From Psammoneis japonica (lineage: Eukaryota): 22,054 nucleotides of DNA. The DNA lies in contig QPGO01000287.1 of NCBI GenBank assembly GCA_008632985.1, positions 62,001 to 84,054 of the forward strand. Direction: 5' to 3'. Below, in pieces: positions 2,182-22,054 of this stretch. A program made the position numbers and the translations under genes. Positions within the stretch are counted from its first letter, which is position 1. The number at the start of each line of letters is the position of its first letter. The notes beneath the pieces were generated by a model. The model saw nothing but the letters and a program-made list of their open reading frames with translations, was not told the origin of the DNA and did no database searches.

Positions 2182-2372
2182 AACAACAGCGAAACAGCAG
2201 ATGTGTGCCACCAGCACCACTGATCCACTGTTTGCTGTGCACAACAGGAGCTGATCTCTATTCAAAAGAAATGGAAAGGAAGAAGAAGAAATGTGCGGCC
2301 CTCTTGCTGAGTGCAAAGGCAGCAAGAAGACAGCAGAGTCAACACCACATGCCATTGATGCCACCAGATAAC

Positions 2373-2764
2373 CCCACTCCCAGCGCGAACCATGCAGTGG
2401 TTCGCCGCGCGAACTCACGAATGCGCGCGATTCCTGCCCCGAACCATCAAGTGGTTCGCGGCAAGCCAAAAACGAACCGATAGACGATGGGTAAAAGTGT
2501 AAAAGATAATGAGATATCTACAATAACATTACATCAGTCGATACAGCAACGTCTGTTTGACAATAAGTATGCTTTATTTTAGTGGTTTACTATGTTCTTA
2601 AACTTCTCCGTACTGCTACCGTCTTGTTCATCGTGAGCCTCATTTTTCTGGTTCAATTTTGCATTCGACCCTCTGGTACAAATTACCACGTATATTTCTA
2701 CGCTCGTCCTCCCGAACCACCTCATGGTTCACCAATTCTACGGGGCTCCCGGTACTTATCTACG
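2373..2764. mobile_element. Terminus of a young insertion, likely a DNA transposon, cut off by the assembly gap
   Basis: Abrupt switch to CG- and TA-rich sequence at ...ccagataac|cccactcccagcg, absent from the equivalent site at 3043/3044. Three palindromes GAACCA-N5-TGGTTC at 2387-2403, 2441-2457 and 2714-2730. No transposase or second end is visible. Confidence 0.6.
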
Positions 2765-2766
2765 NN
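2765..2766. other. Assembly gap (NN)
   Basis: Two N bases in the sequence. Confidence 0.98.
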
Positions 2767-3581
2767 GATGCACTCAGCATGTGAATTTGGAGAGCCACTC
2801 ACAAACTCATCAAATGTGAGGAAGAAGAAGGAATGCACACACTCTTGGGTGCAACAACAGTGAAACAGCAGATGTGTGCCACCAGCACCACTGATGCACT
2901 GTTTGCTGTGCACAACAGGAGCTGATCTCCATTCAAAAGAAATGGAAAGGAAGAGGGAGAAATGTGCGGCCCTCTTGCTGAGTGCAAAGGCAGCAAGAAG
3001 ACAGCAGAGTCAACACCACATGCCATTGATGCCACCAGATAACACCAGTGATCCACTGTTGAGGACAGTTGGTGCCAAGTGTCGGTGTGCTCAACAGTGA
3101 TCTTGTGCACTTGGAAATGAAGGCCTCCACACTGGTTTTGGCACCGCCTGCCGGTTGTTGAGTACATGATCGTTTCAGACATGGACGCATGTGCTCTTGG
3201 CTTCGTTTAATTCGAGCGATCCATCTAATGATCCGAAAATGTCCCATGTGCTTCGGAGATCTTTTTGCTTTGCCGGCCCATGAACATGACGCTTTGATTT
3301 TGACCCACACCCCTCGCCGATCCACTGCACTCTAATACCCCAGCTCCTTTGTTGTCGTTGTGTATCTCGATAGGTAAGATGTGATGGAGAGAGTGGCTCG
3401 CAACTGCAACGAGAAACAAGAAATTGATCATGGAAGCTTATGGCGCTTGCTTCGTGTGGATTGTTCGTGGTGGATTGCCGTCTTTACTTTTCCACGTGTG
3501 ATTATTCGGCGACTCTCACACTGAAGTTCGATTTGTTACCCCGCTACATACGTACAGGTCATTCTCGAAACACAGTTCATC

Positions 3582-5372
3582 ATGGTGGAAACACAAAACC
3601 GCAAGCGCACCCGAAGTCAAGACGAAGATTATCACGAGCCTTCTGATAGCAATGCTCTCGTGGAACACGCGGAAGAAGCATTGGAAACGGCCAAGCAAGT
3701 CCGCGCTCACGAGAACAAGCAACGTCGGCTCGAGTCATTTGCGCGCAATCATCCTCCGTTGGAGACGCTGGATGGCTTAGTCTTGGAAAGGATCTTTCTC
3801 TACCTTGACTCTCCACGCGATGTGCAGTCCTTTGCGTTTTGTGCCAAGTACCTGCGAGCCTGTCTGACACCCGAGATTATCATTCGCTCGGCCGTCTTTG
3901 CGGGAGGCACGTCCCGTATTGCCATTAGTTCCATTATCCGCTGCGTTAGGAACAGGTCGATTCATATTCCTTCGACTCCTCGACTGCATCGATTGGTGAA
4001 TGCTACGAAATGTGAGAGAGGCGACCAGTGTTTTGCGTACAACCATCAGACAAAGCAGCCAAAGCGCATTGCTGACAGCGGGATGCGGTCATTTGGGCTT
4101 GCAGTTTGCGATGACTGCGTCAATAATACTTCTCATGCGGCAACCGTTTACCATAGACGGCTCGACAACGACAGCGACCCCTTTCGTTTTTTATCGGAGC
4201 ACTACGTGGAGGCAGTGATAGGCCATAAAGCGGGGCCAGTCATCTCAAACCTCCAAGTGAAGCAAGCTCAAGCCACGTATCCTCGTGATCAAGTCCAACA
4301 AGCTCTCAACGATTTTTTTGAGTCGGTTGACGAGGCAGCGGACGTACAAGATGCGGAGCGAGGCAAGAACTCTGTCTTTGACATTGCAGAAAGTCAGTAC
4401 GATGCATTTGAGAAATCCAAGGAGGATTTACTTCTGCAAAAGCAGCAAAAACGAGCAGCCTTGCGAATTGAGAAGCGACGGGCCAGCGCAGAGTCCATCT
4501 ACCAGAGACTCCAGTCTCTCGTAAAAGGACATGACCGCGAGGACCTCATTCTTGACTGCGCTTGGACGTACGATGGGTATTGCCACTTCAGTAATGCTGT
4601 CGTGGACGGAGAGTTAGGGGAGCTGCTTCGGGCTCCCACCCAAACGACTTTCAAAAAGCTCACGGCTGCGGTGGACCGTGTGAAGGAAGCCATGGACTTG
4701 CTAGCTTCTCACGGTTTTTTCTCTGGTCCCAATTTTCTGCCTTTTCTTTCTGGCGCAACCCATCAAAAGGTATTGCGTCAATTCTGTTTCTCTCTGTACA
4801 AGTACCGCGAGGTAAACGCTTTGTTAGGGCTGAACACGCGCACGTTGAGTGTATACCGCCTAGCGCTTGAACGCCTCAGGGGAGGAAAGCCTTTCGATGC
4901 ATTGCTTGTCCTCCTTGGGCCACGTAGTGTTGGTATGGCTCTCGCAACAAGTATTCGTGGCACAGATCTTGTGCCTAAAAGTAAGATCAGGATTCTTGTG
5001 CAGAAGGTATGGGACCGCAAGGTCCGTGCCCTGGTAGACATCGATTCGGAAACCAAGTACCGCGTAAAGCATCGGGAATGCTTGCGAGAGTGCAGAACAC
5101 TTCGTTTGGCCATCATCCATTATCTCGAGGATCCACTCACAGTGGAGTTTGTCAACCAAACGGATCCTCCTCCTCATCGTCCTCACCAACGATTCACTAG
5201 GCAGGATGCGGTGAACAAGATTTTTTCTCTCGAAGGAAACACCCTCCGACATTTGCAGTCTCGCAACTTTGCCGCGTTGCGACGCCTTCATCGTGCCGAT
5301 TTTTTGGGACCCAACTTTGTCCAACTCCCTGCTGGCGTGTTTCTTAGTCGAAGACCATCATCATTTCGATAG
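3582..5372 (+). CDS. 596-aa hypothetical protein with N-terminal F-box-like motif
   Basis: Long uninterrupted ORF with normal codon and dinucleotide use. PLETLDGLVLERIFLYLDSPRDVQSFAFCAKYLR is F-box-like. Cys cluster CERGDQC...VCDDC and a predicted coiled coil (EKSKEDLLLQKQQKRAALRIEKRR). Confidence 0.85.
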   Translation: MVETQNRKRTRSQDEDYHEPSDSNALVEHAEEALETAKQVRAHENKQRRLESFARNHPPLETLDGLVLERIFLYLDSPRDVQSFAFCAKYLRACLTPEIIIRSAVFAGGTSRIAISSIIRCVRNRSIHIPSTPRLHRLVNATKCERGDQCFAYNHQTKQPKRIADSGMRSFGLAVCDDCVNNTSHAATVYHRRLDNDSDPFRFLSEHYVEAVIGHKAGPVISNLQVKQAQATYPRDQVQQALNDFFESVDEAADVQDAERGKNSVFDIAESQYDAFEKSKEDLLLQKQQKRAALRIEKRRASAESIYQRLQSLVKGHDREDLILDCAWTYDGYCHFSNAVVDGELGELLRAPTQTTFKKLTAAVDRVKEAMDLLASHGFFSGPNFLPFLSGATHQKVLRQFCFSLYKYREVNALLGLNTRTLSVYRLALERLRGGKPFDALLVLLGPRSVGMALATSIRGTDLVPKSKIRILVQKVWDRKVRALVDIDSETKYRVKHRECLRECRTLRLAIIHYLEDPLTVEFVNQTDPPPHRPHQRFTRQDAVNKIFSLEGNTLRHLQSRNFAALRRLHRADFLGPNFVQLPAGVFLSRRPSSFR

Positions 5373-5607
5373 TGGCATATTCTTCGTGAGATTCGCCACC
5401 GTCCAACACCACTTCCAGCGATTTCTTTCGTGATAGTGTTTGTTTCTATCAAAGGCGTGCATGTCAAGCGGTGATTTCTTTCAGGGCTAAGCATCTGTGA
5501 ATTTTCAACTTCTCGTTTCAAGCAACAGTACCGTCGACTTTTTGTCGCAAGTGTGAGCATCAGAATGATTTATTCGTGAATTATAATCTGACATTGTTAC
5601 CAGTGCG

Positions 5608-5889
5608 GCAGTCTATCATAGCTTGTTGTTGCGTTTTCTACACTCCATGTCATTACACAATTTGCCAACATTGTGCTTTCCTCCTTTCCGTCAGCGCCTC
5701 CTCAAAGAGATGACTGCATTGCTGGGCACATCCACCAATAAAGTAGACTTTGTGGCTCCCTCAGAACTTAGATTCTCACCCTGGGTGGGAGGGTCTTTGC
5801 TGGGGTCTCTATCTGATTTCCAAAACTTTTGTATTGCACAAGAAGAGTGCAAGCAGTTGGGCCCCACCATTGTTCATCACAAATGTTTT
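5608..5889 (+). pseudogene. C-terminal fragment of an actin-like gene
   Basis: AVYHSLL...FANIVLS (frameshift) QRLLKEMTALLGTSTNKVDFVAPSELRFSPWVGGSLLGSLSDFQNFCIAQEECKQLGPTIVHHKCF aligns with the actin C-terminus (NIVLSGG...[46 protein letters not shown]). No N-terminal part upstream. Confidence 0.85.
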
Positions 5890-5972
5890 TTTCTAGTAGA
5901 GTCTTGCTTGTCCGCAAGTCGATCCGATCCTAGCTGGTACAGCAGTACACGTGCAGTAGCTAGCTAGAAGTA

Positions 5973-6243
5973 AAAAACCCAATCCTAATTTAAAGTGCTA
6001 TTACACCTTTGCCCAGCAACACCGGCGCCGGCTAACCCACACCTCCAGTACACTTGACTTGCAAGTGCGGCAGAAGTGGATGCGATTAGCCTGAAACGGC
6101 GCCTCCCGGAGGAGACGCCCGACGGAAATAACTGGCAATGGTGCGTGTGCCACGACGCGCCAGTTTCCTGGCCTCCTTCAAACTTTCTTTTAATCGGGGA
6201 CGAACCATAGCGATCCAATTCTGAATTCGAACCGTTGTGAACG
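5973..6243 (-). mobile_element. 5'-truncated non-LTR retrotransposon (LINE) 3' end with 11-bp target-site duplication
   Basis: Direct repeat agctagaagta at 5962-5972 and 6244-6254 flanks a 271-bp segment that is absent from the paralogous site (~17100-17125). The minus strand encodes IQNWIAMVRPRLKESLKEARKLARRGTRTIASYF, resembling from memory the C-terminus of diatom non-LTR element ORFs, followed by a short 3' UTR. Confidence 0.7.
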
Positions 6244-6596
6244 AGCTAGAAGTAGCTAGACGAATTGCCAATGTCTATTCGTCAAACGTTCGGGCCCGGA
6301 GAGTCTCGATTATCCACCCCAGTAGGATCCCAAGAGCACAATAGAAGATGACGGGTTGAGTCCCTGGTAGTGGCAAGGCGGCGAGACAATTGAATGAATT
6401 GAAACACGAATCATACATGACTAATTTTTATCCCTCCCAACTGTTCTGACAAACTCAGTGCACAAACCCCTTGTAGTTCGCTGCTGTGTGGGTCCAAGAC
6501 CGGCCAATTTTCGTCCAATCACCCCAAAGGACCTTGAGAAGAATTCATGGAATATCTCAAAATATAAAATGGCTCTTCTTCTTACAGATTCAGTTC

Positions 6597-7694
6597 TCAA
6601 AACAAGGCTTCCCATTCATTGTACGTAGTTGGGTCCTCCAACTTGTTCGTTGCTTCCTCGCAGAGCTTCTTGCTTCGTTTGTGGGCTTCTACGTGCTTTG
6701 GTGGCAATCCGACTGGCGCTACTAGTCCCGCGAACTCCGTAGTGAAGAGAACACGACCACCAGTTGCTTTCATAGCATTGATAATAGTATCCCGGCTGTA
6801 TCCTTCGCCCAACCGGAACAAGAGCAACTTCTTGCTCGCCACCGACATGACATCTCCCAGCTTTGCAGGGGGGATCCGCACACGAGTTACGGAGAGTTCT
6901 CGCAAATGAAGACATCCTTGGAGAATGGCTCGGACCCCCTTTTCAGTAGCTTTCTCGTGGAAATCGAGATTGAGGGCTTGCAGATTCGGGCATTCTCGTG
7001 CTATCGTAGCAAATGCTTCATCCGTCAGACAGGAGCCACGAACTGTGAGCTCGCCAAACGTACCCTCCAAATTAAGGCATCGGAGCTCAGGCATCCCCGG
7101 TGATGAAAAAAGGAGGACAACGTCTTCGTCCACGAAATAGTGATCTTGAATCTCTAACTTGACCAACTTCTTCAAATTTGACACTTCCAACGCCAAGGCG
7201 TCGCACGCAGCGCGTGGCCAAGGGCCATGATCAGACGCATTTCCAATCACAACATAATTAAGCACCAGCTCTTTGAGGTTTTCCAAAGACTTCAAAATGA
7301 CTGTCAGTTCCTCGACTTTGGCAAATGCCACATTTGCGAAGACTAGCTTTTCCAGAGTCTGGATGCGGGCCAGGGGACGCAAGGCCTTTCCATTGTTGAT
7401 CATCTTTGACACTTGCGCAAAGCAGCAATCCTCGGCCTCCATCTCGAAAGAGATCAGTTCCTCTTGGCCTCGCAAAAACTTCTCAAGAGCACCGGGGCTT
7501 AACTTGGGCGAGGGGGTCCTAGCCTCAATTCCTTCCATGTGGTCCATCGAGCTGCTGGCACCCAAGGTCAACTCCTGAGGGAAAAACATCTTCATGTGCT
7601 TGATGTTTTTCACGTTGATGCTGTTGAGGATGCTGTCAAGATTGTCTCCATCATTGCGTGGGTCGAGAGTGAGCGTGTTGCCTAAGAGTCCCAT
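6597..7694 (-). CDS. 365-aa leucine-rich repeat (RNI-like) protein
   Basis: Intact ORF with LRR units LENLKELVL, LKKLVKLEI, ELRCLNL, LTDEAFATIARECPNLQALNL, ILQGCLHLRELSV (cysteine-containing LRR type). Confidence 0.9.
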   Translation of the reverse strand: MGLLGNTLTLDPRNDGDNLDSILNSINVKNIKHMKMFFPQELTLGASSSMDHMEGIEARTPSPKLSPGALEKFLRGQEELISFEMEAEDCCFAQVSKMINNGKALRPLARIQTLEKLVFANVAFAKVEELTVILKSLENLKELVLNYVVIGNASDHGPWPRAACDALALEVSNLKKLVKLEIQDHYFVDEDVVLLFSSPGMPELRCLNLEGTFGELTVRGSCLTDEAFATIARECPNLQALNLDFHEKATEKGVRAILQGCLHLRELSVTRVRIPPAKLGDVMSVASKKLLLFRLGEGYSRDTIINAMKATGGRVLFTTEFAGLVAPVGLPPKHVEAHKRSKKLCEEATNKLEDPTTYNEWEALF

Positions 7695-7859
7695 GCTGGT
7701 TGCAGTTTGTTACGTAGGGGATCGGATGAGAGGATCAAGATCGTTCTGATAAAAATGCGATCTTCAATCCAAATCTTCGCGACGCTCCATGCTAGCTACG
7801 TGCCGCACGTGCGTGCGTGCGTGCACTCCCAACTGGGCGGTGCCAAGCCAAAAGCTGCA

Positions 7860-9480
7860 GCTGGGAATGGAGAGATGCCTCTCCATGCAGCCGCAGCCTG
7901 TGGCTGTGCAAATGTTGTCTCGGCTTTGCTGGAGAAAGTTGAATGTTTGCCTGAAGAAGACCTTGCTGCCTTGGATGAACACGGTGATGTGCCGTTGCAC
8001 GCTGCATTGCGAATGAAAACTTTGAGTGTCTTGAGCTGTTTGTGAAGAAGCTCCCGCCAGAAGTTTTTTTGAGTGACAAAACAGTGAACAAACAAAGGGA
8101 CAACATCTTGGCAGCGTTGGTGCGATGCACTGATGTATGCTGTGATTGTGAAAATTCTGAAGCCCGTGACTCAGGATCATTCAGAATGTTGAAAAAGTTG
8201 CTCGGCATCATCAAAAAGAATCACCTGCACAGTCCACACTTGCTCACAAGAGTGAAATCAAGGAACATGCCATGGCAGTTGCAGCAGCATCTGGTCATTT
8301 TTTAAGCAAAGGAGATTTCAAAGCTGCAGTTTTGTGCAGAGCGGAGTGTCACCAATGTGTGCATTGAAAAGAAGGGGGGTCTTCCAAGGACCCCTCTGGA
8401 CCTGGCAAAGGAGACAAAGGCCATGTTGGAGAGAAACGCTGCCAAAAAAGAGTTCTTTGAATGTGGTGTTGTTGTTCCTGAGTTTTGGGAGACTTGTCAT
8501 TTTTCAAACTGGCTTGAGTGAGGCACAAATCTGACTGTGGATCTGCTTGAGAAGTTGGGGCAGGTGAAAATGACATCTCTTGCCACTTCCATGTGCCACG
8601 CTTGGCCAGGTGCATGCGCAAGTCAGAAACAAAGGCTCAGCGTTGCTGCGGAAGATTTCAAAAACCGACACACCTCCATCAGGAACAGCAGAGGCACTCC
8701 CTCAACTCAATTTCACCAAAAAGGACGTGTGAAAAGGGTGACAGAGGTTGGTCAAGCAATTCAACAGCAGGTCAGAAATGTGGTCTGCAACCCTGGTCCC
8801 ATCCCTCAGGTGAAAGCAGCACTCATTGGGAATCCAAAAGATCCTTGCATTTGGACTTCTTTTGATTTGTGCTGCAGGCAGTGTGGGCTGTTCGTAGATG
8901 GCTTCACACCAATGAACACAGTCGTCTGTGTGCACCTTGGACTTGTGCACCGTGAGAGCAAATTTGGTGCATGCGATCCTGACCCTGAGTGTGCTGTCCA
9001 GATGGAGACATGCAACGAATGCATCAAGTCTGATGGGGGAAAGCCACATGCAGATGCACACATGCTTGATGCAGAGAAAGTGTGCAATGAAGGTTCGCTG
9101 ATGATGCCAGGTTCAATGTCATGGGAGAGGACAAAATTCTTTGAACCAAAAATGCAGATTTTCTCAAGGTCATCATTGACAGGTGGCCGCATGTCTTCAT
9201 TTTGACAGTCAAGGACACAAATCCTTCAGAAGGGGGGTCAGAAGAGCTTCTGATTGACTGTGGGTTTCTTTGCTGGGAGAAACATGAAAATGCAAAGTTG
9301 AGGAAGTGTCTGGAAATTTTTGGAAGCCAGACGCATGGAGTTGGAAGCAGAGAACACTCATCTGCGAACATTGAAACAGAGTTAGAACATCAGGATGTGG
9401 CCACTGTCTCCTCTGTTGAAGCTGTTGGCAGTCTCTTCACTGCTGTGTGTAATGGAAGCGTTCACTTTTCTTCTTGTTGC
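7860..9480 (+). pseudogene. Decayed ankyrin-repeat gene with an unidentified C-terminal region
   Basis: GEMPLHAAAACGCANVVSALL and DEHGDVPLHAALR (cf. ankyrin GxTPLHxAAxxGxxxVVxxLL), then a PLDLAKE-like motif near 8392-8415. Coding-like frames with shifts continue to ~9480. The 3' extent is uncertain. Confidence 0.65.
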
Positions 9481-9596
9481 TGAACAATTTAGGTTGAAGA
9501 AAAAAGCAAACACCTTTCCATGCGTCTGTTGCCATGTTTGAGCAAAGCATGGATGTCAAAGCATTGGCCAAGCATGTGCACCCAAGTGTTGCACTG

Positions 9597-9696
<100 letters not shown>

Positions 9697-9769
9697 AGAG
9701 AAGTGGCTGAACCAACTTGGCAGCAAACATCTTCTTAACTCCGCTGTGTCCAGAAACAAATGTCAGTTT

Positions 9770-10060
9770 CTTTGGTGCTGCACTGTGTCAACACTGTGGC
9801 AAAACCAACAGGAGACTGTCCCACACTCTCAGCAGTCTCATGCTGTCCTGTGCATGTGGCAGGATGACAATGCACCAATGACCCCCACTGAAAACAACTG
9901 GATGTTGTTCTTGTGCCTTGCACTGTGTTCCGGGCAGCAGCATGCTTGATGCTGTCCTTGAGCACAGGCTTGAAGCTTGCCAGCCAACTGTGCAAGTGGT
10001 GAGCAGAGATTGCTTCACATCTGTCCATCAGATGAATTTGATGCTTTGCCATGTTGTTGT
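9770..10060 (-). mobile_element. Decayed LINE 3' end, distantly related to 5973-6243
   Basis: Minus-strand LHSWLASFKPVLKDSIKHAAARNTVQGTRTTSSCF parallels IQNWIAMVRPRLKESLKEARKLARRGTRTIASYF. The downstream UTRs share ctg..g.gtgtggg..ag and ..agcac motifs. No TSD identified. Confidence 0.55.
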
Positions 10061-10879
10061 CATCTCATCAATTCACTGATTGGGTTGTTTGATGATCGTG
10101 CACATGCACAGCCATGCTGCACTTGTTCCGATGACCAAAAATGTGGTCAATCATGCCCCAGCTGCATTTCTTCTTACAGCAGCCACCAAAGTGAGACCAG
10201 AGTCCAGACAGTCATGGGAAGATGCCTCATTTGGGCACCACTCCAGCACCATGAGAAATGCCCACAACAATTGTGTCTTCAACAGCTTTTCTCTTTTTTG
10301 AGTTGGCAACTTGGGGGCAACATGAGGGTGTTGCTCACTCAGACAAAGCACTTCATTGCAGCAATCAGTGGTCTCAAGGGCAGTGTGGGCCCATGCTTTG
10401 CCTGAGTCCATGGAGCAGGAGCAAACAAATGTGGTTAAGTTGTCACCTTTTGTTTCAGCATGCTGCACTGTTTTTTCTGAGTGACTGTTTTGGAGGCATT
10501 CAGTGACTCAAAGGATCTTGTGGGAAATGCTTGCCAAAGCTGCTTGTCAGTGTGTGGGGGAGATGGTCCAGTCTGCCACCTCAACCTTGGCTGAGATGTT
10601 TCTTTGGTGCCCTGCATGGCTGGGTTCTGTGTGTCAGTGAAGAGAGGTCATTCCTGCACATGCAGCAGATTGCTCTGATGCTGTGAGCCAATTTCCATTC
10701 AATGCAAGTTTGCGCCTCTGCTTCAATGCAAAACATCAAATTGCTCCTTTCCATTTGTCATTGTTGATGCTGGCAGTGTGAGCATTTTGCATGTGAGCTC
10801 TTCTGCTCTGTTGATGAAGTTGTTTTCATTGTCACTCTTTGTGCTTTTGTTGATCACATCTGTTGATGCTTGCTCCAAT

Positions 10880-11170
10880 GCCAGCTGCCCCATGAACGGA
10901 GTGGTTTTTTTTAGTGCAACGATGGCAACAAGATGCCCCCTGACAAATGACACTCACTCAAAGTTGGCACCATGATTCTGGTGAAGCAAATTGTCATTGA
11001 TGCAAGCTGCTCTGTCACTGGCATCAGCTGACTTGTGCCACCACCTGAGCCCCATCCAGAAACCAGAAACACTGTCAAAAATTTGATGTCCACCATCCAT
11101 GATTGCTGCATTTTGTGTCACAACACACAACACCCACTTGGACTCCTGCCAATGCCAATGCCAGTGCCAC
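10880..11170 (-). pseudogene. Possible decayed SET-domain fragment
   Basis: DRAACINDN...NHGANFE*VSFVRGHLVAIVALKK...GQL weakly resembles SET ARFINH...N...V.IVA.RDI..GEEL after undoing Y->C/H and R->stop changes. Weak evidence. Confidence 0.25.
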
Positions 11171-14100
11171 CCTCTGGACAAACCCCATCTTCCAGCATCC
11201 ACTGCCCTCACCACTCCCCAGAAGGCTGCCACCACCTCACTTTGCTGCAAAGCCCCCTGGGCATAAAAACTCTGCTGTCAAATTTGCACCCCTGCCCGTG
11301 CTGCTGCTCTGTTGGCAACCACTTCACCAGTGTTCTCTCACTCTTACTCTGGGTGTCCCATGAATGACAAGAGTGAGCCATTGACCATTGTTCAAACTGC
11401 TGGGCAAGCTTAAAAACCAGTTGGCTGTGACAAAGCTGGCATTGCACTTGACAGAGCATCTCATGTCAGACACATTGTGTGCAAGGCAATTCACAGTGCA
11501 GCCTCCTGTTTCTTGACATCTCTCAAGTTGTGGAGTGCAGCAGGCTTCTGTTGGCATGCAATTGGCAAATGGCTTCTTTGTGCATGCCTGGGTTGATGGC
11601 TCACAAAGCACATTTGGATTCCATTTTTTTGTCTTTTGCTGCGACTTTGCAAATGCTGCAAGCCTCCCATTGTGTGTGTTGGGGGGGGGGGGGCTCCCCC
11701 AGTGACTTTTCTTGATGAATTGGACTGGCACCATTCTGGTTGGTTGCTCAACTTTTTATTGGCTTGGAGATGCATTTGAGATGTCCTCCTGATTCTCCTG
11801 ATCAGGAAGGCATCCTCTCCAGGGCTGTTGGCTGGTCATTGTCTGTGATTTGACATTTCTTCAGTTTTGCACCAGGTTGCCACCTTGGTTGGTTCCATGT
11901 GTGATGTTCAGTGTCTGCCTCCAGTGCACTGCATGTTCTTTTTTACAGCCACAGCTCTCACCAGTGCTTTTTTTGCACTGGAAGATCTGCAACCCTGTTT
12001 TTGCCAGGCTTCTGAAGCTTGCAGACCAGCTTCAGTTCATCAGGTTTTGAGCAGCAGTGCCACAGCATTGTGAATTCACTGGCCCATTTTCAGCAACTGT
12101 CAGTGTGACCTCAGTTGAAAAGATGAGCATTGGCAGAGTGATCTGGAGCATGAAGAAAACCCATGTGTGGTGGGCTGCAAGTCATTTGGAGGGTCAAGAA
12201 AAAGGTTGTTGTGCACCTCTAAAATCCAGCTAAATTCCTCTGGGTGCTTTGACCTGCACCATGAGCTGGAGAGTCTTCCAACAGCTGTCAATGGCTTTTT
12301 GTCACAAGGGTCAGCATCAGAATCTTTTGTTCATGAAGCACAAATGACTGTGATCTTAAGTTGCTGTCAGTGCTGCTGTCTGTTGCTGCTTGTTGTTTTT
12401 AACCCACAACATCATTGCACAGTGATTTTGTCTGGAGCACAGGTCCTTGTGATGATGTTTGAGATGACAGGGCACACATTTTTTCTTTCTGCCTGTCACC
12501 TCCCTGTGTGGTGTGGTGAGCAGAAGTGGCCCCATGCCCGTGGCATCCATGGGGCTGCTGAGAGCAGCAAAGCCCCCACAGCAAAGTGAAGGACAGACAG
12601 CTCAGTTGTGGGACACAAAATGCTTGGGTGTCACATCCAGGCAGGCATGATGCATGAAACCAGAAAGAGGCACTGCGCCCCAACATTTGTTCACAGTGCA
12701 CAACATGATGTGTGTGACACATGTCACGATGTGCCAGCATTGTTTGCATGGGTGTGAAGCACTGGGATTTGATGCCTGCTGGTTTTTGTTGGCATGAAAT
12801 TTAGCAAAATGAGTGCCAGAGCCAACAAACAATGTTGTGTCACTCAACCCTTGGCCAGGGTTGTTCTTTTGTGCCCAAGTCACTCAGCATCAGAGCTTGC
12901 TCAGCCTTGGTGTGTCACAAGTCAAAATGCTCATGTCCACTGTTCATGAGCTCTTGTCAACACAAGTCCTCATTCTGGCTGTGCCCAAGCATTGGCAAGC
13001 CCAAAACCAAAATGATGCTGCAATGGAGCCAGCACAATGCTGAGACATGTGCAAGCATGCAATGGAAAATGTGCTGATTCCACACAGCATCAGTGTGCTT
13101 TCCAAGCATGATCTTTTTCTCTTTTGCATTGCTCAGTTGTCATGCAGCTCAGGTTTGACAGAAGTGCCAATGACGGCAAAAAATTTGGTGCACTGGAGCC
13201 AGTGCAATGTGCCAGGTGCACAAGACACACTCATTCCATGCGCAGTGTGCAGCACTGCTCCGTGCTTTCCAACCATGCCCCCTTTTTTGTTTCAGCAGGT
13301 GAATTTTTTTCTGCCTTTTGTTTTTGACTTTTGAGTTCTTTGCAAGGCAAGGCCATGACAAGAGAAGTGTGCCACTCCAGCATGCTGCTCTGCTCTCCAA
13401 GCATTTGGGTGCTGAGTGTGCTTCAGCAAAGAACAGCTTGAAAAGTGTTTTCAAAGAGTGCATGCAACAACACTGGTGTTGCTCTTGACAGTGCTTTTGT
13501 GATCAGCAAGTTGTGGCACAAGGGATGTGGCAGCCACAGTTGTCTCAGAGTTGCCACTTCTTCTCTCTTGCCTGGTTTGCCACTCCACTCACCATGTTGA
13601 AGTGCACAGCAATCAAAGCTCTGGTGGCAGAGGATTGCAAACATGATGAAGGTGGCAACTCTGCTTTGTCATGCTGAAGGTTTGTGGTGTGTGAGGCCTT
13701 TTGATGCACAGGTGGGGTGGTTTCAGCAAAGAATCAGGCTTCCCCATGCTGATGCTCCACAGTGTGTTGCTGTGCACACTCTGCATGGGTGCCAGCCTGG
13801 TGCGCTGGTGGCCCACACATGTGTGGAGGTTTTGGGCCACATGTTGGGATTGTGCTGGACATCATGCACAACATGTGGTGTGGGGTGAACTCTGGGGGAA
13901 AGTGGGCCCCTTGTGTGGCAGCACTTCATGTTGAAAGATCTGGGAATGCCATGATCCATGATGCAAGAGCCAACAATGAACAAGAGATGACACCCCTGCA
14001 GGTGTGCAGCACTGCATGTCACACAGAACCCTGCCATGCAAAGCCCTGACAACTGAGGATCTCTCAAGCTGTCAACCAAGAAAAAGGGTGCTCATGCTGC

Positions 14101-16014
14101 ATCTCCATCTGCTGTGACAACAGCTGCAGCCCATGACAGCAATGCAAACAAGCATTGAGTCATTGCTTGCACATCAAAAACCAAGCCAAAGACAAGCCAA
14201 CAAATGTGGTGGTGGCAGTGGGCAATCAAGGTCAAGACAGCCCTTGCTCTTCAGCCAGTTGTTGACCATCTGTGCCACCAGCAATGCCAGTCAACAAGAA
14301 GGGCTGAAGCATTGTTGTGTCACTTGATGATGCAGTGCAAAATCTGAAAAATGTGGTTGACAGGCCAAGTGGTGCAACCTTCATTTGCATGCATGTGGCT
14401 GCCGGTTGAGTCAGCCCTTGTCATTTGCCTTGCCACTCATGACAATGACTTTGTCAAAGTGAAGTTTGGCACCTTGGTTGACAAATGGCCAGCAGCAAAG
14501 ATTTACCCTTGAGGTCTGGGAAGCACAGATGTCTGCAGAAAGACAGGGCAAGAAGACAGTTGCAGCAGATGAAGCACATTTGCTGTTTCTGCACCAAGTG
14601 TGGTGGTTGCATTGCTTGCCATTGAGGGTTAGAGACAAAGAGGAAAATGTGCTAAAAGTTCTCGTCTAATGGCTTCCAGCATTGCTTCCAACTCCAAAAC
14701 AGCACTTCCAGAAATCCAAAACAAGGCTGTGTGTGGCATTCTCTGCTTCTGGACATGGGTTGTGTCTCTGGTGGTGGACATGAGAAATGCCAGAAGACCC
14801 ATTTGCCTTGCTGTTGAGTCAAGCAGAAATGAGAGTCTGAAGAGGCAGCTGACAAGGCAGGCTGAGAGAGACACACACATTTCTCAGACATCATCATGGG
14901 CTTGTGTTTGTGCTGCTGCCCTGCTGTGGGTGTGCTTTCATGGACAGAGGTTCAATCAAATGAGAAGATTGCATCATGTTTTCTGCAAAAGCAAATTGTG
15001 CTTTTGCAGCTGCTGGCATGTGCTTCTTGTGTGCAAGCTTTATGGCAGAAACATGTTGCATGGTCTGCTGGTGGCTGAGCAAGACCCCAACTTGGACTTG
15101 TGACAACAAAGGCAGCACAAAAGGGCAGACTGCTGCCCCAATGTTTGGGAGCGCACACAGTGGGCCACAAAGGAGCAAGCAGCACCTTCTTCATTTAGAG
15201 TCCAAGCAACCAGGGCAAAGTCAAAGCTGTGGAAGGCAGGGCTGGTGTGGTGTGTTGTTGGAGCTTCATGGTTTTGTGGACCAAATCTGCATTAGTCTGA
15301 CCTCTCAGGAACTCACCAAATGGACTGCAAATGCATGCTTCATGCTGTTGCTGGCACCATTGGTTTGCCTCTGTGTCAACCTGACACAGAAGCTAAAAAG
15401 TGAGCACAAGACAATGTTCTTTGGAGTTTGTCAATGCAAACCCTCCATGTCATTGAAGAACATCAGGGATCTTTCATTGCAACATTGTCATTCTTGCTTT
15501 TGTGTCACAGTCCATTGCCAAATCAAAGGAAATGGGTTGGTCTCTCACAAGAGGGGGAAAGGCACAGAAGGCAAAGAAATGGGCATTTGTGTGGTTGTTG
15601 CTTGCCGCTTTCTTGTTGTGTTGATCAGTGAGTTTGGAGCCAAAAGCCTGTGTGTGCACAGCAGGGCACAGCTGTCCAGCTGGGGCTTTGGATTTTGCAG
15701 GCCCCACTGAGGCAGAAGGTGGTGTGGCTGCACAGCACAGGTGGTGCTGGGTCACAAAGAGGAGGCTGGCTTCTGTGCTGCAGAGGCAGGTTTGAAGAGT
15801 GCTTCAGGTCAGCAAAGAGAGCACAGGAGCAAGAAGTGGCAAAGGCCAAGGGACACTGGAAGAAGATTCAGCAGGGTGTCCAGGGATGCTCAAGGGGCAA
15901 GCAATGGCAGAACAATGGTGGCAAAAGCTCTAAAAAAGCAGTTGATGGGCAAAGAAATCAAGGGTGCCAGTCCAAGATGATCAACAACAAATGATGGAAA
16001 AGTGCAAATCAAGG

Positions 16015-17050
16015 TGTCATTGAGGTGGTCAGCTGTCAAAGTGCTGCACTGTGTCTCATGGTTTGGGTGATCATGGGTGACCCAGCCCCCATCAATTTGC
16101 CCAGTGCTGACTGTTGCTCTGGCAAAACATGGAGTCACTGTTCACTCATTGGGAGTGAGGAAATGGACAGATCTGAAGACATGCTTTTTGCACAGAGCTG
16201 CAGATGAATCTCAATGATCAACCCACATCCCTTGTCATCCAGGGGGCTGTTTCAGTGCCATTCCCAGCACCAAGTTAAGAGTGGATGATGCAGCTCATGT
16301 TAGAGACCTTTGGACCCCAGGTGTTCCACATCACCCTCCAGACAGCACTGTCTCTCTTTGCTTTGGTCTGCATGGCAGGATGAGCTGTCAGTCCAGAGAG
16401 GGTGTTGCTCACTGTGCCCCCATTTGCCAATGCTGTGTGCCCTCTTTTTTCCATGCCTTGGTTTGGCTTGATGTGGTGGGTCACAACATGACTCCAGTTG
16501 TTTGGCCCAGAGGAGGGTGACCCAATTTTCCCAATTGAAGCAATGAGCTCAAGGGCATCCACACCACAAATGACAACCATTGCAGTGCGGCTGCTTGCTT
16601 TGAGGGCAAAAGAAAAAGAAGAGATTGACTGCATTGGAATGACCTGCTGAGCTTGCCAAAATGGCAGCTGTCCTCTTAGAAGGGAGTGTTTTTGCTGGAC
16701 AGGGAGATCCTCTTCCAACCTTGCCTGGCAGGATTGCTGTGAAATGCATGGGGTTGCAGACTCCCTGTTTCAGCACATTCTGATTTGTGATGACCATCAG
16801 AACAACAACCCATGCTCCTGTTTGCATCAGGGCCTGTCCAAAGAGGCATGACTGTGATGGACATTGTGGCACCCCAGAGTGCAATTGTGGCACCCCCAGA
16901 ATGCAATTGTGGCACCCCCAGAATGCAGATTCTCACACTCTGGGTGGGAGGGTCTTTGTTGGGGTCTCCAGCTGATTTTCAAAGCTTTTGGGCTGCAAGA
17001 AGAATGCCAACAGTTGGGTGCTGCCACCATGTGGTCCATCACAAATTTTT
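16015..17050 (+). pseudogene. Near full-length actin-like pseudogene
   Basis: Collinear actin motifs: I*RHAFCTELQ (IWHHTFYNELR); EWMMQLMLETFGPQVFHITLQTALSLFA ([28 protein letters not shown]); SREGVAHCAPICQCC...HALVWLDVVGHNMT (SGDGVSHTVPIYEGY...HAILRLDLAGRDLT); EILFQP; IVAPPECRFS; WVGGSLLGS; VVHHKFF. Confidence 0.88.
16863..16927. repeat. Three tandem copies of a 21-22-bp unit inside the actin pseudogene
   Basis: attgtggcaccccagagtgca (16863-16883), attgtggcacccccagaatgca (16884-16905 and 16906-16927). Confidence 0.93.
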
Positions 17051-18510
17051 CCACAGTGGATTCTTTTGCTTGATGAAGTAGATTCAACACCAACTGACAG
17101 CCCACACACAGCACAGAGATGCAAAATTGCCAATGCATGTTCATCAAATGTGTTCGAGCCAGCCAATTGAGTTTCAATTGTCCACCCCAGCAAGAGCCCA
17201 AGAGCACAGCAGAAAAGGTCTTGCTGTTTGAGTCCCTGGTGGAGCCAAGGTGGTGAGACAATTGACCAAATTGAAACACAAATCATGAATGACTGGCTTG
17301 TCATCCCTGTCAACTGTTCTGACAAACCCGTGCCAACCCCTTGCAGTTTGCTACACCCAAAGCAACTTGAGAAGAACCCATGAGTGTCTCCAAATGCAAG
17401 GTGGCTCTTCTTCTTGCAGATTCAGTTCTCAAAACAAGGCTTCCCATTCATTGTGCCCAGTTGGGTCCTCCAACTTTTTTGTTGCTTCCTCACAGAGCTT
17501 CTTGCTTTGTTTGTGGGCTTCTGCATGCTCTGGTGGCAATCAGACTCACTCCATCAGACCCTCAAATTTTGCAATGAAGAGGACACAACCACCAGCTGCT
17601 TTCACAGCATTGGTGACAGCATCCCAGCTGCATCCTCTGCCACCCAATCAGAACAAAAGCACATTCTTGCTTGCCAACCACATGACATCTCCCAGCTTTG
17701 TTGCTGCACACAAGTGACAGAGAGCACTGCAAATGAGTGCATCCTTGGAGAATGGCTTGAACCCCCTTTTCAGTGGCTTTCTCATGGAAATCAAGATTGA
17801 TTGAGGGCTTGCAGATTCAGGCATTCTTGTGCCATTGCAGCAAATGCTTCATCTGTCAGGTGGGAGTTACAAACTGTGAGAGGTCACCAAGTGCACCCTC
17901 CAAATCAAGGCATCAGAGCTCAGGCATCTCCCATGAAATTGTGATCTTGAATCTCTGACTTGACCAACTTTGTCAAATTTGACATTCCCAGTGCCAAGGC
18001 ATTGCATGCAGCACAGGGCCAAGGGTCATCACCAGACACATGATTGCCAATCACAAATTGATTGAGCACCAGCTCATTGACATGTTTCCTGGAGACTTCA
18101 AAACAGCTGTCAGTTCCTCAAGTCTGGGAAATGTCACATTTACAAAGACTGGCTTTTCAAGAGTCTGGGTGTGGGCCAGTGTGCGCAAGGCCTTTCTGTG
18201 TTAATCATCTTTGACAGCTGTGCAAAGCAGCAGTCTTCAGCCTCCATCTTGAAAGAGATCAGTTCTTTTTGACCTTGCAATGACTTCTCAAGAGTGCCAG
18301 GACTCAACTCAAATGAGGGGTTTCCTGCTGTCAATTCCTTCTGTGCAGGCCACAGGGAGGCTGCCACCCAAGACCAACTTCTGAGGGAAAAACATCTTCA
18401 TGTTCTTGATGCTTTCACGTTGATCATTGATGCTGTCAAGGATGTTGTCAAGAAGATTGTTTTCATCATCATGTGGGTTGAGAGTCAGCATGATGCTCAA
18501 GAGCCCCATG
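16900..18510. repeat. Direct segmental duplicate of ~5750-7695 (actin 3' end, intergenic spacer, LRR gene)
   Basis: Collinear similarity, e.g. 6571-6710 vs 17403-17542 aligns without gaps with 12 mismatches in 140 bp. Spacer anchors tccaccccag, ccaagagcaca, gagtccctggt, caactgttctgacaaac are shared. Confidence 0.95.
17429..18509 (-). pseudogene. Hypermutated copy of the LRR gene at 6597-7694
   Basis: Homologous from ATG (18509) to stop (17429): MGLLSIMLTLNPHDDENNLL...IKNMKMFFPQKL, ELSPGTLEKSLQGQKELISFKMEAEDCCFAQLSKMIN. Frameshifts and a ~30-bp deletion near 17930. Confidence 0.95.
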
Positions 18511-20766
18511 ATGTGTGTGCAACAAATGGAGTGCAAATGGGGGCCTGACATTCACCTGCAAGGAAGATTTGACACTGCTGGGAGATGACCATGGCCAATC
18601 TAACACATGCTGCTCCAATGCATGCAGCTGGCCAGCCATGCTGCATTGTTTGTTTTTTGCTTTGTGATGGAACCACTCTGCACACAAATGTCACCCTCCA
18701 TTGTGTCTCCCCTCCAGCCTATCATGACAAAAGCTGCTTAGAAGAAACTGGGACAAACCATGTTGGCAGTTTCAAAAAGACAGTGCTGAAGAAATGAGTG
18801 CTGCCAATGACTGCACAGCTGGAACAAAGTGACAAAATGGCATCATCCTCAATCTGCTCATGCATGGTCATTTGTCTCTGGCACTCTTGGTGGCGTGGCT
18901 CCAAGGGCACAGGAGCCACCAGTGCCATCTTCCACACAAGGGGTGGTGGTGCACATGTGTGCCAACATCAACACTGCAACCACTTCTTCAGCCAACTCTT
19001 TGGCATGAACAAAGGAGGGTTTCATGTTGTTGGGGATTTCCTTTCAATGACTCAACAACAAAGGAGGTGCTGGCAGCTTCCACATGATGTGAAGCTCATG
19101 CCCCACAAGAAAGCAGCCATTTTGACTTGCTGCTTGGCATTGACCAGCTGACATGCAGGTCAACCATGCTGGGATCAACTGCCAGTCTGCAGCATCTGGT
19201 GCAGGCAGAGCATCTTGAGCTGTGCATCTGGCATCAATGAGGGAAGGAGCACATGCTCCACTCATCATGTGCAGACTTTGGGTGGAAGGTTGAGAATGGC
19301 CGCCCCCAACAATTTGATTTTCATTGTTCACTTTTTTGCAGCAGCATTTCCACAAACAGGCTTTTTTGTGGTCATGGTTGTCAGAGATGTTGCTCTGCAG
19401 CATTCATGAAGGGGGCTTCAACTGGCCTGGTTTGGCATCCATGGGTTTTTGTGGTTTTCTTTGCCTGACACTTGGCCACCTTTTTTGCTCCAGGCATCTT
19501 GCACCAAGTTGCCGGCATGGTGACTGGTTGGAAAGGCTTCCAGCACAAGAGATGAGGTGCTGTGGGCAGTGCCTGCTGTCAACTCAACCCCTGCACACCA
19601 TTGAGTTCTCCCTCAAAATGAAAGCAGACGAGCTTGGCTTGTTGTTGGGTTTCTCGCTCAGGAAAATTGCACACGTGGAAGAGCTGAAAAGGAGTCAGTC
19701 AAAACTGCCACCCTTGCTGCCAAATTGCACAGTGCACAGCTTGCACACACCAGATGTAGAGGTGGCCCCCATGTGGCTGTTTTTTTGTGACTCCCAGACA
19801 CCAGGGCAGTGGCCAGAGCAGCAACAACTCCCGCAGACAATGCAGTGAGCTGGCACAACATCAAGCTGTTCATCAACAGTGTCACAGATGTGGCCACCTT
19901 CTTTTTGCAGGCCAGCCAGCTTCTTTTCTGTGCAGCTGAGTCACAAGCCATTGGAGTGCAGGTGCTGCAATGCAGCAAATGCGTGTGAAGATGAGCTGGT
20001 GCTGCAGAGCCCAGCCTGCAAAAAACACCTCCATTTGCTTGGTGCATGACAATCAACCCTTGCTGACAAAACAGCAGAGCATGCATGTCTGCAGGGGGGA
20101 TTGTCAGTCACATGCAGTGGCCACAGAGGCTTCTGGGCCATGCCAGCCAACAACTCCATGAGAAGAGGAGGCCGGTGCTGGTGTGTGGCTCCCACATCTC
20201 TTCAAGGGGCTGGCGCAACAACCAAAGGACTCATTTTGCTTTCTCTGACACCTCTTTGTGTGCCGGTTTCTGAGTGGCCTTGGCAAGCTTGGTCAGGAGC
20301 AGGGGACACTGAAAAAGGCCTCTGGCACAGAGACCAGAGGCAGCAGCAGACAAGGGGGTCAACAACTCAGGGGTGGCAGTGGTCTCCACCAGCAGCATGA
20401 CAACACGATGCCCAGGCTGGCACATGCATCGTCCACCCTGGAATTGATTTGGTTGAAAAGCCTTGTGGCACTGCATGTTTTGCTGGTGCTCTCACCATAA
20501 AGGCTCCGCGTTTCTGGGAATCTCATTGGCTGCAGGAAGAAACAAAAATTAATGAAATCATTGTGCAAACATCACCTCCACCGCAATCGTTTTGCAAAAT
20601 CTCTTACCGGTAGAGTAGCTCGTGACACGCACTCGTGACTGAGGAGCATGAGGCATGAGGGAAATAACACAAACGACGATCGAAAGCTATGACAATAATA
20701 AGGAGAGAGGCGAAAGCGTACGCCGCACATCTCACTCTTCGCCTGTAGTCAACTGGGTTGCCTGCC

Positions 20767-21465
20767 ATGAGAGTCCCCTCTTTGCTGCTTTTTCTTGCCT
20801 GGGTGGTGTCACACGCGGATTCCTTGTCGTTGAGAGCCGTCCAGAAACAGCGTGTTGTAGGATTTCTTGCTCACGCCGGTGCTGCAGTGTTTGCGGGATC
20901 TGAAGTGCTGGAGGATGTTCGAGAAATCGGCCACGGACATGGTCTTCTTTTGCTCGGATGCTCCAAGATTTGTCGTGAGGTGAACCTCCTGAGAGAGTCG
21001 GTACAAGAAGAATCTGAAGAGCTGAAGGAACAGGCATCTAGGAAAAAGTGGGTGGCACGAGCCTTGGATCCATTTGTCAGCGGTTGGCGAATGTTTTTCT
21101 CAAGAAAAACGTCAGCTCTACTTGCCACGGCAGCGCTAGGTGCAGCCTTTGTGGAAGTTGTTCAGGATTCTCTCCCAGGTGGTCACCATGGTACTGTTTG
21201 CCTGGCGCTCTCTGAATTGTTGGAACTTTTGACCGAGTCAGGACTTGTAAAGGGCCGCATGTGGTCGGAACTGATAGCGAACCAAGTTTTGCGCCTTGGT
21301 CTTGCAGTGGGAGCCATAATCTTGGCATTGATGGAAACAGCAAGATCCACACAACAAGCAATGGGCGCTCACCATGCCGTCCTTGTAATTGCATTGAGCA
21401 AGACATTGCGATGTATTGGATTTCTGCTTGACGACGAGCCGGAAAACGAAAAGAAAGTCGCATAA
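20767..21465 (+). CDS. 232-aa membrane protein with signal peptide and three His-motif repeats
   Basis: First ATG at 20767. N-terminal MRVPSLLLFLAWVVSHADS is signal-like. Hydrophobic helices flank GHGHG, GGHHG and GAHHA. Normal composition. Confidence 0.85.
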   Translation: MRVPSLLLFLAWVVSHADSLSLRAVQKQRVVGFLAHAGAAVFAGSEVLEDVREIGHGHGLLLLGCSKICREVNLLRESVQEESEELKEQASRKKWVARALDPFVSGWRMFFSRKTSALLATAALGAAFVEVVQDSLPGGHHGTVCLALSELLELLTESGLVKGRMWSELIANQVLRLGLAVGAIILALMETARSTQQAMGAHHAVLVIALSKTLRCIGFLLDDEPENEKKVA

Positions 21466-21786
21466 GTAGATACCATGTAGGTAGACTGAAGAAGGTGTGT
21501 ATGTGTTGTACCTGATGCATGAGATACGGTAGAACAACTCGAGTTCTATCATCGTTCCGTGAAGTTAGCTGCCGGAATATAAGTACAGTATTACCAACCG
21601 CTCGTAAATGCCACGGGGACAGAAAGCTAGTTGCATAGTATGTGTTAGAACGTCAGGTTCGCGAGGCGACAAGTAAATGATAACGTGCATTTTTACAGCT
21701 TCGCGTTCTTGTAACGAAACAACGGACGTGGGGCCGACACCATTATTAACCAAAGTGACATTTATGTCAAGCGAGCTTCCTTCATG

Positions 21787-22053
21787 CTAAGGATTCGGCT
21801 CCTCTACCGCCTTTTCAGCCTCCTCACTTTCTTTTTCCGGCACATAGGTTCCCTTGACAACCTCCGTCGTAACAGCCGTAGTTCCGTCCGGTTGAATTGA
21901 TTGAGTGTATGTGACTGTCTGGGTTTCGGGTGGTCCTCGTTCTGGGCGAACCGATGGTTTGATGACAAAGCAGCAGAGTGCGGCCATGAACCAAATAACA
22001 ACAGAAGCAATGCTTGTATTATATCCCCAGTCACGTTCACATTCATCGGAACG
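21787..22053 (-). CDS. 3' end of a membrane protein gene (continues beyond the window)
   Basis: The frame is open to the window edge: RSDECERDWGYNTSIASVVIWFMAALCCFVIKP (final TM helix), then a Thr/Glu-rich tail ending in TAG at 21787-21789. Confidence 0.75.
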   Translation of the reverse strand, partial: RSDECERDWGYNTSIASVVIWFMAALCCFVIKPSVRPERGPPETQTVTYTQSIQPDGTTAVTTEVVKGTYVPEKESEEAEKAVEEPNP

Positions 22054-22054
22054 T

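Follow-up and report, generated by a model that had tools for sequence, protein, structure and literature searches.

Domains of near-complete TpA and CpG loss in a Psammoneis japonica contig and a gene pair that records the conversion

Introduction

The 22,054-nucleotide stretch of Psammoneis japonica DNA analysed here (contig QPGO01000287.1; hereafter the window, in whose own numbering all coordinates are given) raises the question of what kind of process can strip long, sharply limited parts of a genome of almost every TpA and CpG dinucleotide (TA and CG where they are counted). Two such domains lie in the window, and the larger one holds a decayed duplicate, copy B, of a leucine-rich-repeat-like gene whose intact counterpart, gene A, stands outside it. 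The original prediction for this locus, made from the letters alone, proposed that a regional, TpA-specific process turns A:T into G:C on either strand beside CpG loss, and both the spectrum of the full pair and the interleaving of its outcomes bear this out. Its author knew of no description of such a system, a statement overtaken by a preprint on Bigelowiella natans (Mettrop et al., bioRxiv 10.64898/2026.01.13.699255). Context-specific nuclear hypermutation of the A:T>G:C type is reported once before, in this unreviewed 2026 preprint and from one chlorarachniophyte, and full-text literature searches returned the signature solely from that source, with no report for diatoms.

The phenomenon, an in situ and polarised change of TA and CG into TG or CA, is very probably real. 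The account that explains it best as a whole, and is probably correct, is that of two domains in which a TpA-specific hypermutation, with adenine deamination as its leading candidate chemistry, is superimposed on CpG decay.

Two erased domains and their edges

Observed/expected ratios (O/E) of dinucleotides, computed in 500-bp bins along the window, fall into two regimes (Table 1). In the bins of 1-2000 and 8001-20500, CG O/E is 0.00-0.32, TA O/E is 0.00-0.12 and mean TG/CA O/E is 1.65-2.18 (left domain, bins 1-2000: CG 0.04-0.17 and TA 0.03-0.09), and over the domains as a whole CG O/E is 0.05-0.09. The islands of normal sequence have CG O/E of 0.70-1.29 and TA O/E of 0.29-0.85 in 3501-7500 and 20501-22000, and values of 0.91 and 0.53, respectively, overall. 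In the core of the main domain (9500-19500), CG and TA constitute 0.28% and 0.34% of dinucleotides (O/E 0.05 each), and TG plus CA 23.85%. Methylated genomes do not usually reach so extreme a CG O/E as 0.05.

The domain boundaries are at most 100 bp wide: the last dense TA before the main domain is at 7797, and the right edge falls at 20498-20510. On the 7800-9500 side, CG declines gradually to about 9500; the bin 2001-2500 at the left domain is ordered alike (CG O/E 0.59, TA O/E 0.13), and no zone with CG erased and TA kept was found within the window. Because TA depletion reaches about 1.5 kb beyond CG depletion, the TA process spreads further or runs faster, and the two processes are separable. 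Non-coding island DNA, for instance 5900-6600, retains both TA and CG, so the bias is regional; it is not a neutral spectrum of the whole genome that selection hides in genes. The original prediction understated the extent: copy B is decayed, but the process is not restricted to 16900-18510, as the main domain measures 12.7 kb and the left one no less than 2.4 kb.

The composition of the domains was compared with an in silico control, made by turning each CG and TA in the islands into TG or CA at 50:50. The simulated islands contain 12.0% CA and 11.8% TG, and the domains show 11.3% and 12.0%. CG, TA, TG and CA together make up 23.8% of dinucleotides in the islands vs 24.2-24.5% in the domains, and G+C content is 0.489 vs 0.486. 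Island-type DNA that had been fully converted would look like the domains. The GC dinucleotide reaches 7.45% in the domains vs 6.11% simulated, and GCA/TGC stands at 1.15 times the simulation, an excess that is suggestive of TAC>TGC and is confounded by ancestral composition. Assuming equilibrium and equal back-rates, the composition of the core gives a TA rate of at least about 35 times background transitions (23.85/(2 x 0.34)) and a CG rate of at least about 43 times.

As to the contents of the main domain, Pfam searches of 41 window open reading frames (ORFs), 31 of which lie within 8000-20500, and of that interval read through in six frames recognised no family in the domain, the longest ORFs of the domain, which are probably spurious, returned no locus in two IMG/VR scans, and Rfam and transfer RNA scans gave no match. 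TAA and TAG are nearly absent from 8000-20500, and this leaves long ORFs of up to 244 codons that are rich in Cys, His, Trp and Gln. The target does not appear recognisably viral or transposon-like, and erasure itself would degrade homology.

The spectrum of the gene pair

The duplicate was detected by blastn as 6263-7698 (copy A) against 17125-18513 (copy B), with 75.1% identity over 1472 columns, and all counts were taken from a MAFFT alignment with 1354 aligned columns, 257 of them differing, in which copy A served as the reference state for per-site rates and dinucleotide fates. Copy B differs by 18 indel events and has four in-frame stops; the codon differences are 110 nonsynonymous and 47 synonymous, and all four Tyr codons of gene A are changed.

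None of the 38 TA of copy A is kept in copy B (19 became CA, 16 TG and three something else), and a single one of the 63 CG is kept (28 CA, 25 TG and nine other). Counted per A-site, A>G affects 36/76 of the TpA positions (47%), 19/210 of ApA (9.0%), 12/197 of CpA (6.1%) and 20/203 of GpA (9.9%), so that the predicted elevation at TpA holds across the full alignment, at 47% vs 6-10%. It is also specific as to product, as 36 of the 39 changes at TpA A-sites are A>G, and it is highly significant against the 51/610 found outside TA (Fisher p=6e-16). Similarly, C>T affects 54/127 of CpG sites, vs 17/198 at CpA and 18/159 and 16/184 in the remaining contexts (8.6-11.3%); outside CG and TA together the figure is 51/541 (Fisher p=7e-17). 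Transversions outside CG and TA amount to 53/1151, and an APOBEC-like TpC preference was absent from the pair, with C>T at 15/162 TCH sites vs 7-11% in other contexts.

The hand alignments from which the idea arose proved exact. The 140 bp of 6571-6710 differ from 17403-17542 by 12 substitutions, four of four TA became TG or CA, and two changes lie elsewhere; the CG of that interval are five complete ones plus one at 6710/6711, of which four became TG or CA and two were lost through transversion. Likewise, all five TA of 6771-6803 are converted in 17603-17635.

A per-site rate of about 50% means one hit per dinucleotide, as a hit removes the target, and both the TA and the CG processes are therefore saturated. 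Along copy B, the order of TG and CA outcomes forms 16 runs at TA sites vs 18.4 expected (P=0.25) and 31 runs at CG sites vs 27.4 expected (P=0.87); the hits fall independently on either strand. With regard to the 3' flank, A>G was counted at 12/18 TAC, 8/16 TAA, 8/18 TAT and 8/24 TAG sites (chi-square p=0.20), and outside TpA at 13.9% of VAC vs 3.1% of VAG, which hints that a 3' C may be preferred.

Polarity of the change

The family of gene A supplies outgroups. Its match to Pfam LRR_14 is weak and a word-indexed protein search gave no match to it, but exhaustive HMMER searching retrieved 1406 representatives at E<=0.001, 18 of them at E<1e-30, the top one being 43% identical across the full length. 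The 30 best of 150 listed homologues were aligned, and at each differing codon the residues of A and B were put to the vote. The A residue is favoured at 14 of 18 TA-involving codons and the B residue at three, with one tie (binomial p=0.013), at 17 of 23 CG-only codons (four for B, two ties) and at 39 of 65 other codons (13 for B, 13 ties). For instance, a TTA Leu shared by 27 of 29 homologues became TCA Ser in B, an ATA Ile shared by 27 of 30 became ATG Met, and a CTA Leu shared by 16 of 27 became CCA Pro, and none of the three B residues occurs in any homologue. The TA state of gene A is, as far as these protein alignments can tell, ancestral. Copy B's own four TA stand opposite TG or CA in A and are accordingly new in B.

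A second line needs no outgroup. Inside the left domain lies a duplicated segment whose two copies differ by 57 substitutions in 290 aligned bp, and 20 of these form 10 adjacent double differences of TG in one copy against CA in the other. By parsimony, such a site had a CG or TA ancestor that was resolved independently in each copy. The direction of change that the prediction had assumed is thus upheld twice, by the 14:3 vote and by these double differences. The A/B pair itself has 12 TG|CA double-difference sites, which suggests that copy A may have lost some CG and TA too.

The actin-like fragments beside A and B offer as outgroup only one clean codon, a Leu conserved in actin, which is CTA in the fragment of copy A and CCA (Pro) in that of copy B. 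At one site (TGT ATT vs TGG GCT, W-I in actin), the hand alignment suggests that the TA arose in copy A.

Support in sequencing reads

Run X1, of a platform not on record, comes from one public sample, possibly the same one that the window assembly came from; its read-built contigs are short-read-like and cover 2055-22054. The X1 word depth through the main domain is 51-82, equal to that of the single-copy parts of the islands. Both junctions are bridged by X1 contigs (6593-9590 and 17425-22049), and a 7780-letter contig that spans 9706-17446 covers, together with one of 5482 letters, 9706-22049 with 15 other letters. Since these contigs reproduce the erased state at single-copy depth, it was not made by an assembler or polisher; the prediction had named such an artefact as a danger, and the read-derived contigs agree with the assembly.

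The window and X1 differ by 46 substitutions; A>G and T>C account for 25 of them, C>T and G>A for 10. Among the 34 listed differences, a TA of the window faces TG or CA of X1 at eight places, all in island 1 and five of them at 7003-7715 beside the edge of the main domain, and the reverse occurs once; a TG or CA of the window faces a CG of X1 at five places, and a CG of the window faces TG or CA at two. The five places might, as a speculation, reflect miscalls of 5-methylcytosine (5mC) in a long-read assembly. The differences are most often at TA sites and unpolarised, and they could be alleles, culture mutations or assembly errors. Inside gene A, those at 7003, 7258-7259, 7670 and 7684 all alter the protein (5/5, three of them at TA; I>T, N>G, T>A and L>S), and gene A itself may be under attack or unconstrained.

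X1 has one extra base at 13628, 14667, 17728, 18198, 18719 and 19223, which is typical of residual homopolymer errors in long-read assemblies. Its contigs break at a (TC)17(CA)31 microsatellite at 9599-9694 in the main domain. Another run, X2, whose kind is not on record, covers 2055-8057 and 20064-22054 and has zero depth over 8058-20063; it resembles a transcriptome, which would agree with a silent domain, and the uncovered part is not counted as evidence.

Other elements in the window

The coordinates of all features are collected in Table 1.

Table 1. Domains, islands, duplicates and gene copies in the window
Feature	Position	Strand	Remarks
Left TA/CG-erased domain	1-2380		Runs off window start; dense CG from 2384, dense TA from 2481
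Main TA/CG-erased domain	7800-20500 (~12.7 kb)		Single copy; contains copy B
Main-domain margin	7800-9500		TA O/E 0.05 yet CG O/E 0.36
Island 1, normal dinucleotides	2381-7799		ORF 3582-5372, actin-like fragment, high-copy repeat, gene A
Island 2, normal dinucleotides	20501-22054		CG O/E 0.70-1.17, TA O/E 0.36-0.85
Gene A	6597-7694	-	Intact 365-aa leucine-rich-repeat-like ORF (P0001), "before" copy
Copy B of gene A	17125-18513	-	Pseudogene, "after" copy; ATG and TGA kept
Actin-like C-terminal fragment, copy A side	5750-5888	+	78.8% identical to 16907-17050 (blastn)
Actin-like fragment, copy B side	16907-17050	+	blastn, hand alignment
In-domain duplicate pair	1262-1553 and 1783-2079	+	78% identical (blastn), both inside left domain

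The actin-like fragment of the A side belongs to an ORF at 5623-5967 that matches Pfam Actin (E=7e-14) and was also aligned with a PDB actin; the fragment of the B side contains a 22-bp, three-unit tandem repeat (16863-16927), which is present as a single unit in copy A. Between the actin fragment and gene A lies a CG-rich, high-copy repeat of about 300 bp at 5972-6242, with an X1 depth of about 1855 vs about 55 in its surroundings; it retains normal CG and TA. It is missing from copy B, where the interval is about 75 bp (17050-17125), and either entered A once the duplication had taken place or was lost from B.

An ankyrin-repeat ORF at 7707-8045 on the forward strand (Pfam Ank_2, E=5e-7) begins at a distance of 13 bp from gene A's start codon, and it extends into the TA-free, CG-containing margin; it may be a gene being erased. 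At the edge of the left domain, a direct repeat (2096-2376 and 2767-3047, 97.9% identical) lies on either side of the letters NN at 2765-2766, and the X1 depth of about 489 at 2055-2721 indicates a moderately repeated element there and possibly a scaffolding join. The left domain also contains a perfect two-unit tandem repeat of 43 bp at 1552-1635.

An open frame of 238 amino acids (stop to stop, 20749-21465) has homologues that are 43-48% identical. For three window proteins, database matches do not exceed 48% identity. The long ORFs lack introns, and the sole named homologue is a protein of the diatom Discostella at 27% identity.

Comparison with known systems

In 15 mutation-accumulation lines of B. 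natans, 231 of 302 nuclear mutations were found in two insertions, one of a nucleocytoplasmic large DNA virus (NCLDV, 186 kb) and one of a virophage (25 kb); A>G and T>C made up 230 of these 231 regional mutations, and every GC-biased one was at TpA (Mettrop et al., bioRxiv 10.64898/2026.01.13.699255). The rate was about 6e-7 per site per generation, orders of magnitude higher than elsewhere in that genome, and episodic, in 11 of 15 lines, and an ADAT2-like protein was proposed as a hypothesis, with DNA activity cited for amphioxus and trypanosome ADAT2 (bioRxiv 10.64898/2026.01.13.699255). The NCLDV insertion has a Rho_TpA of 0.45, and affected windows were clustered with cut-offs of at most 0.43 for Rho_TpA and at least 1.52 for Rho_CpA+TpG (bioRxiv 10.64898/2026.01.13.699255).

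As described in the preprint, the B. natans process resembles the present one in its TpA-only A:T>G:C change, which yields TpG or CpA according to strand within defined nuclear regions, in its clustered windows depleted of TpA and enriched in CpA+TpG, and in an affected sequence that is largely unannotatable; each 500-bp bin of 8001-20500 lies within the cut-offs above (TA O/E <=0.12, mean TG/CA >=1.65). It differs in that mutation was measured directly in lines, whereas here the evidence is comparative only, and in that its depletion is mild, whereas here it is saturated (TA O/E 0.05, TG/CA about 1.9). Its spectrum is almost purely A:T>G:C, and the text of the preprint, whose supplements may hold CpG data, mentions CpG zero times; here CpG is erased equally, and change at CpG (54/127) is as frequent as at TpA (36/76). 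Furthermore, viral insertions are the targets in B. natans, whereas here single-copy DNA that includes a duplicate of a host-type gene is affected, in another organism.

CpG decay through 5mC deamination, known from methylated silent DNA of vertebrates and plants, resembles the pattern here in converting CG to TG or CA on both strands (53 of 63 CG in the pair), regionally and with an excess of TG/CA, but it leaves TpA untouched and so explains half of the pattern. CG methylation of the DNMT5 type is reported from diatoms and other algae of the stramenopile-alveolate-rhizarian (SAR) group (PMC9998398). Fungal repeat-induced point mutation (RIP) is likewise an inactivating storm of dinucleotide-specific transitions with a strong dinucleotide skew, but its direction is C:G>T:A (CpA>TpA in Neurospora), duplication sets it off, and the two copies are both mutated. 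Unlike in RIP, TpA is lost here and not gained, copy A is intact, the affected DNA is mostly single-copy, and C>T at CpA (17/198) is at background, so that the RIP signature is absent between A and B. TadA/ADAT2 enzymes, adenine base editors and ADAR share with the present pattern an A>I change read as G and a preferred 5' U or T. We know of no natural enzyme that erases TA from kilobase-sized chromatin domains.

Proposed explanation

In the preferred account, essentially every TpA and CpG of 1-2380 and about 7800-20500, both of chromatin-domain size, would have been converted in situ at the DNA level. Each palindromic step would receive one transition on a random strand and then cease to be a target, and genes inside a domain would be destroyed, the old duplicate of gene A with its actin fragment being an example. 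The first of two processes would be CpG>TpG/CpA, most simply by deamination of 5mC in DNA that is presumably methylated and silent. The second would be a strictly TpA-specific A:T>G:C hypermutation of the kind demonstrated in B. natans. The likeliest candidate for its chemistry is an ADAT2/TadA-like or other deaminase, putatively recruited to silenced chromatin, that would turn adenine into inosine at 5'-TA in DNA; taken on its own, this chemistry is a tentative assignment that falls short of being probable. The spectrum, saturation, polarity, domain limits and presence in reads are observations, and methylation, enzyme and targeting signal are suggested by them. The excess of A>G and T>C between the window and X1, with its TA differences just outside the domain edge, is taken as support for a process that is ongoing.

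Several points weigh against this account. The support is comparative throughout, drawn from sequences with no mutation observed in action, and what the X1 contigs add does not depend on the assembler, though it does depend on the sample. Two equivalent haplotypes would not be expected to show the 8:1 asymmetry in TA differences that is seen between the window and X1. The outgroups are proteins of 30-43% identity that polarise amino acids only, and the residue of B is preferred at 3/17 informative TA-involving codons. TpA being palindromic, deamination of A and a T-directed mechanism are indistinguishable, and the difference between TAC and TAG (p=0.06) is a weak trend where a TadA-like enzyme would be expected to prefer TAC. 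No viral or transposon feature was recognised in the domain by Pfam and IMG/VR searches, unlike in B. natans, and CpG loss equals TA loss in strength, again unlike there.

A bolder version, possible but doubtful, is a "scrambler" of heterochromatin in a stramenopile-like alga, that is, one domain-targeted system that edits CpG and TpA, the two palindromic pyrimidine-purine steps. Candidates would be an ADAT2-type DNA deaminase with dual A/C activity and a DNA methyltransferase coupled to a TA-editing module. Such a system would nucleate on silent DNA of any origin, including that of the host, and creep into adjacent genes, and the TA-only margin at 7800-9500 together with the TA differences of gene A at 7003-7715 would mark this creep.

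Alternative explanations

The alternative that survives best, though rather unlikely, is that the same TpA>TpG/CpA conversion is driven from the thymine side. In one version, the T of TpA is modified by a TET/JBP dioxygenase, to 5-hydroxymethyluracil (5hmU) or a base-J-like form, and mispaired or mis-repaired to C; in the other, an over-active T:G mismatch glycosylase or repair of the very-short-patch type is recruited to methylated DNA and fixes T:G mispairs of replication at TpA as C:G. In its favour, 5hmU prefers TpA and very-short-patch repair depletes CTAG in Escherichia coli; against it, T>C through 5hmU mispairing is, to our knowledge, not an established high-rate pathway. The TpA palindrome hides A>G on one strand against T>C on the other, and TA and CG losses occupy one domain and both yield TG/CA. 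Abundant 5hmU has also been tied to transposon silencing in dinoflagellates (PMC11572971). However, TA is erased in the 7800-9500 margin while a third of CG remains, and in the B. natans preprint, as far as its text goes, TpA hypermutation proceeds without CpG mutation, which together argue that the TA process is independent of CpG decay.

Error-prone patch repair around deaminated 5mC by a polymerase like Pol eta (WA>WG, as in the somatic hypermutation of immunoglobulin genes) was a candidate of the original prediction and would account for the shared location of the A:T>G:C changes and CpG decay. It is now very unlikely, as a WA preference predicts raised ApA, whereas ApA stands at 9.0%, between CpA (6.1%) and GpA (9.9%) and not above the latter, against 47% at TpA. 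In addition, TA depletion goes past the zone of CG loss, and 35 of 38 TA were turned into exactly TG or CA, a specificity far beyond the error spectrum of a polymerase.

An artefact, in which modified CG and TA were miscalled as TG or CA during long-read sequencing, base-calling or polishing, is highly improbable. Six of the 10 listed indels are one-base insertions in X1 resembling long-read homopolymer errors, and the five places with window TG/CA against X1 CG also fit miscalling. Against this, the X1 contigs (word depth 51-82, 15 other letters over 9706-22049) show the erased domains, TA is even rarer in X1 than in the window, and copy B also has the 18 indels and about 13% other substitutions, which speak for an old, real divergence.

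Just as improbable is a reversed polarity, with the TA/CG-free state ancestral, or a selective purging of TA and CG such as avoidance of a nuclease or RNA sensor. Read from copy B, 35 of 291 TG/CA sites would have become TA, which is a modest rate, and three of the 17 informative codons speak for B; but the outgroups vote for A by 14:3 at TA codons and 17:4 at CG codons, an intact gene would have to descend from an ancestor with zero Tyr codons and hardly any TA, and the TG|CA double differences require a CG or TA ancestor. As for selection, the domain holds a broken pseudogene and is without recognisable coding sequence to select on.

Least probable of all is the reverse transcription and insertion of an RNA hyperedited from A to I by an ADAR-like enzyme, since, for all the preference of ADARs for a 5' U (bioRxiv 10.64898/2026.01.13.699255), the erased domain is single-copy over 12.7 kb, eight times the 1.6-kb length of the duplicate, ApA is not raised, the edges coincide with CpG loss, and the random interleaving of TG and CA (16 vs 18.4 runs, P=0.25), where a retro-copy predicts one strand, also argues against a processive run of a single-strand deaminase.

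Significance

The window provides an independent natural before-and-after pair, polarised by outgroups, in an apparently different algal lineage from that of B. natans. It indicates that the process can go to near-completion, within sharp bounds and alongside CpG erasure, and that it can destroy host-type genes besides viruses. Erased domains also mislead gene finders, as TAA and TAG stops vanish, spurious long ORFs appear and the origin of the DNA is hidden. The locus raises the questions of whether SAR algae generally have a genome defence coupled to silencing, of what targets it and of which enzyme acts on A (or T) at TpA within chromatin, the last of these also being relevant to base-editing technology. 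If the combined editing of CpG and TpA by one domain-targeted system were true, TpA hypermutation would be no antiviral oddity confined to a single chlorarachniophyte but an ancient genome defence common to Rhizaria and Stramenopiles, and it would point to a natural editor of adenine in double-stranded DNA with dinucleotide specificity.

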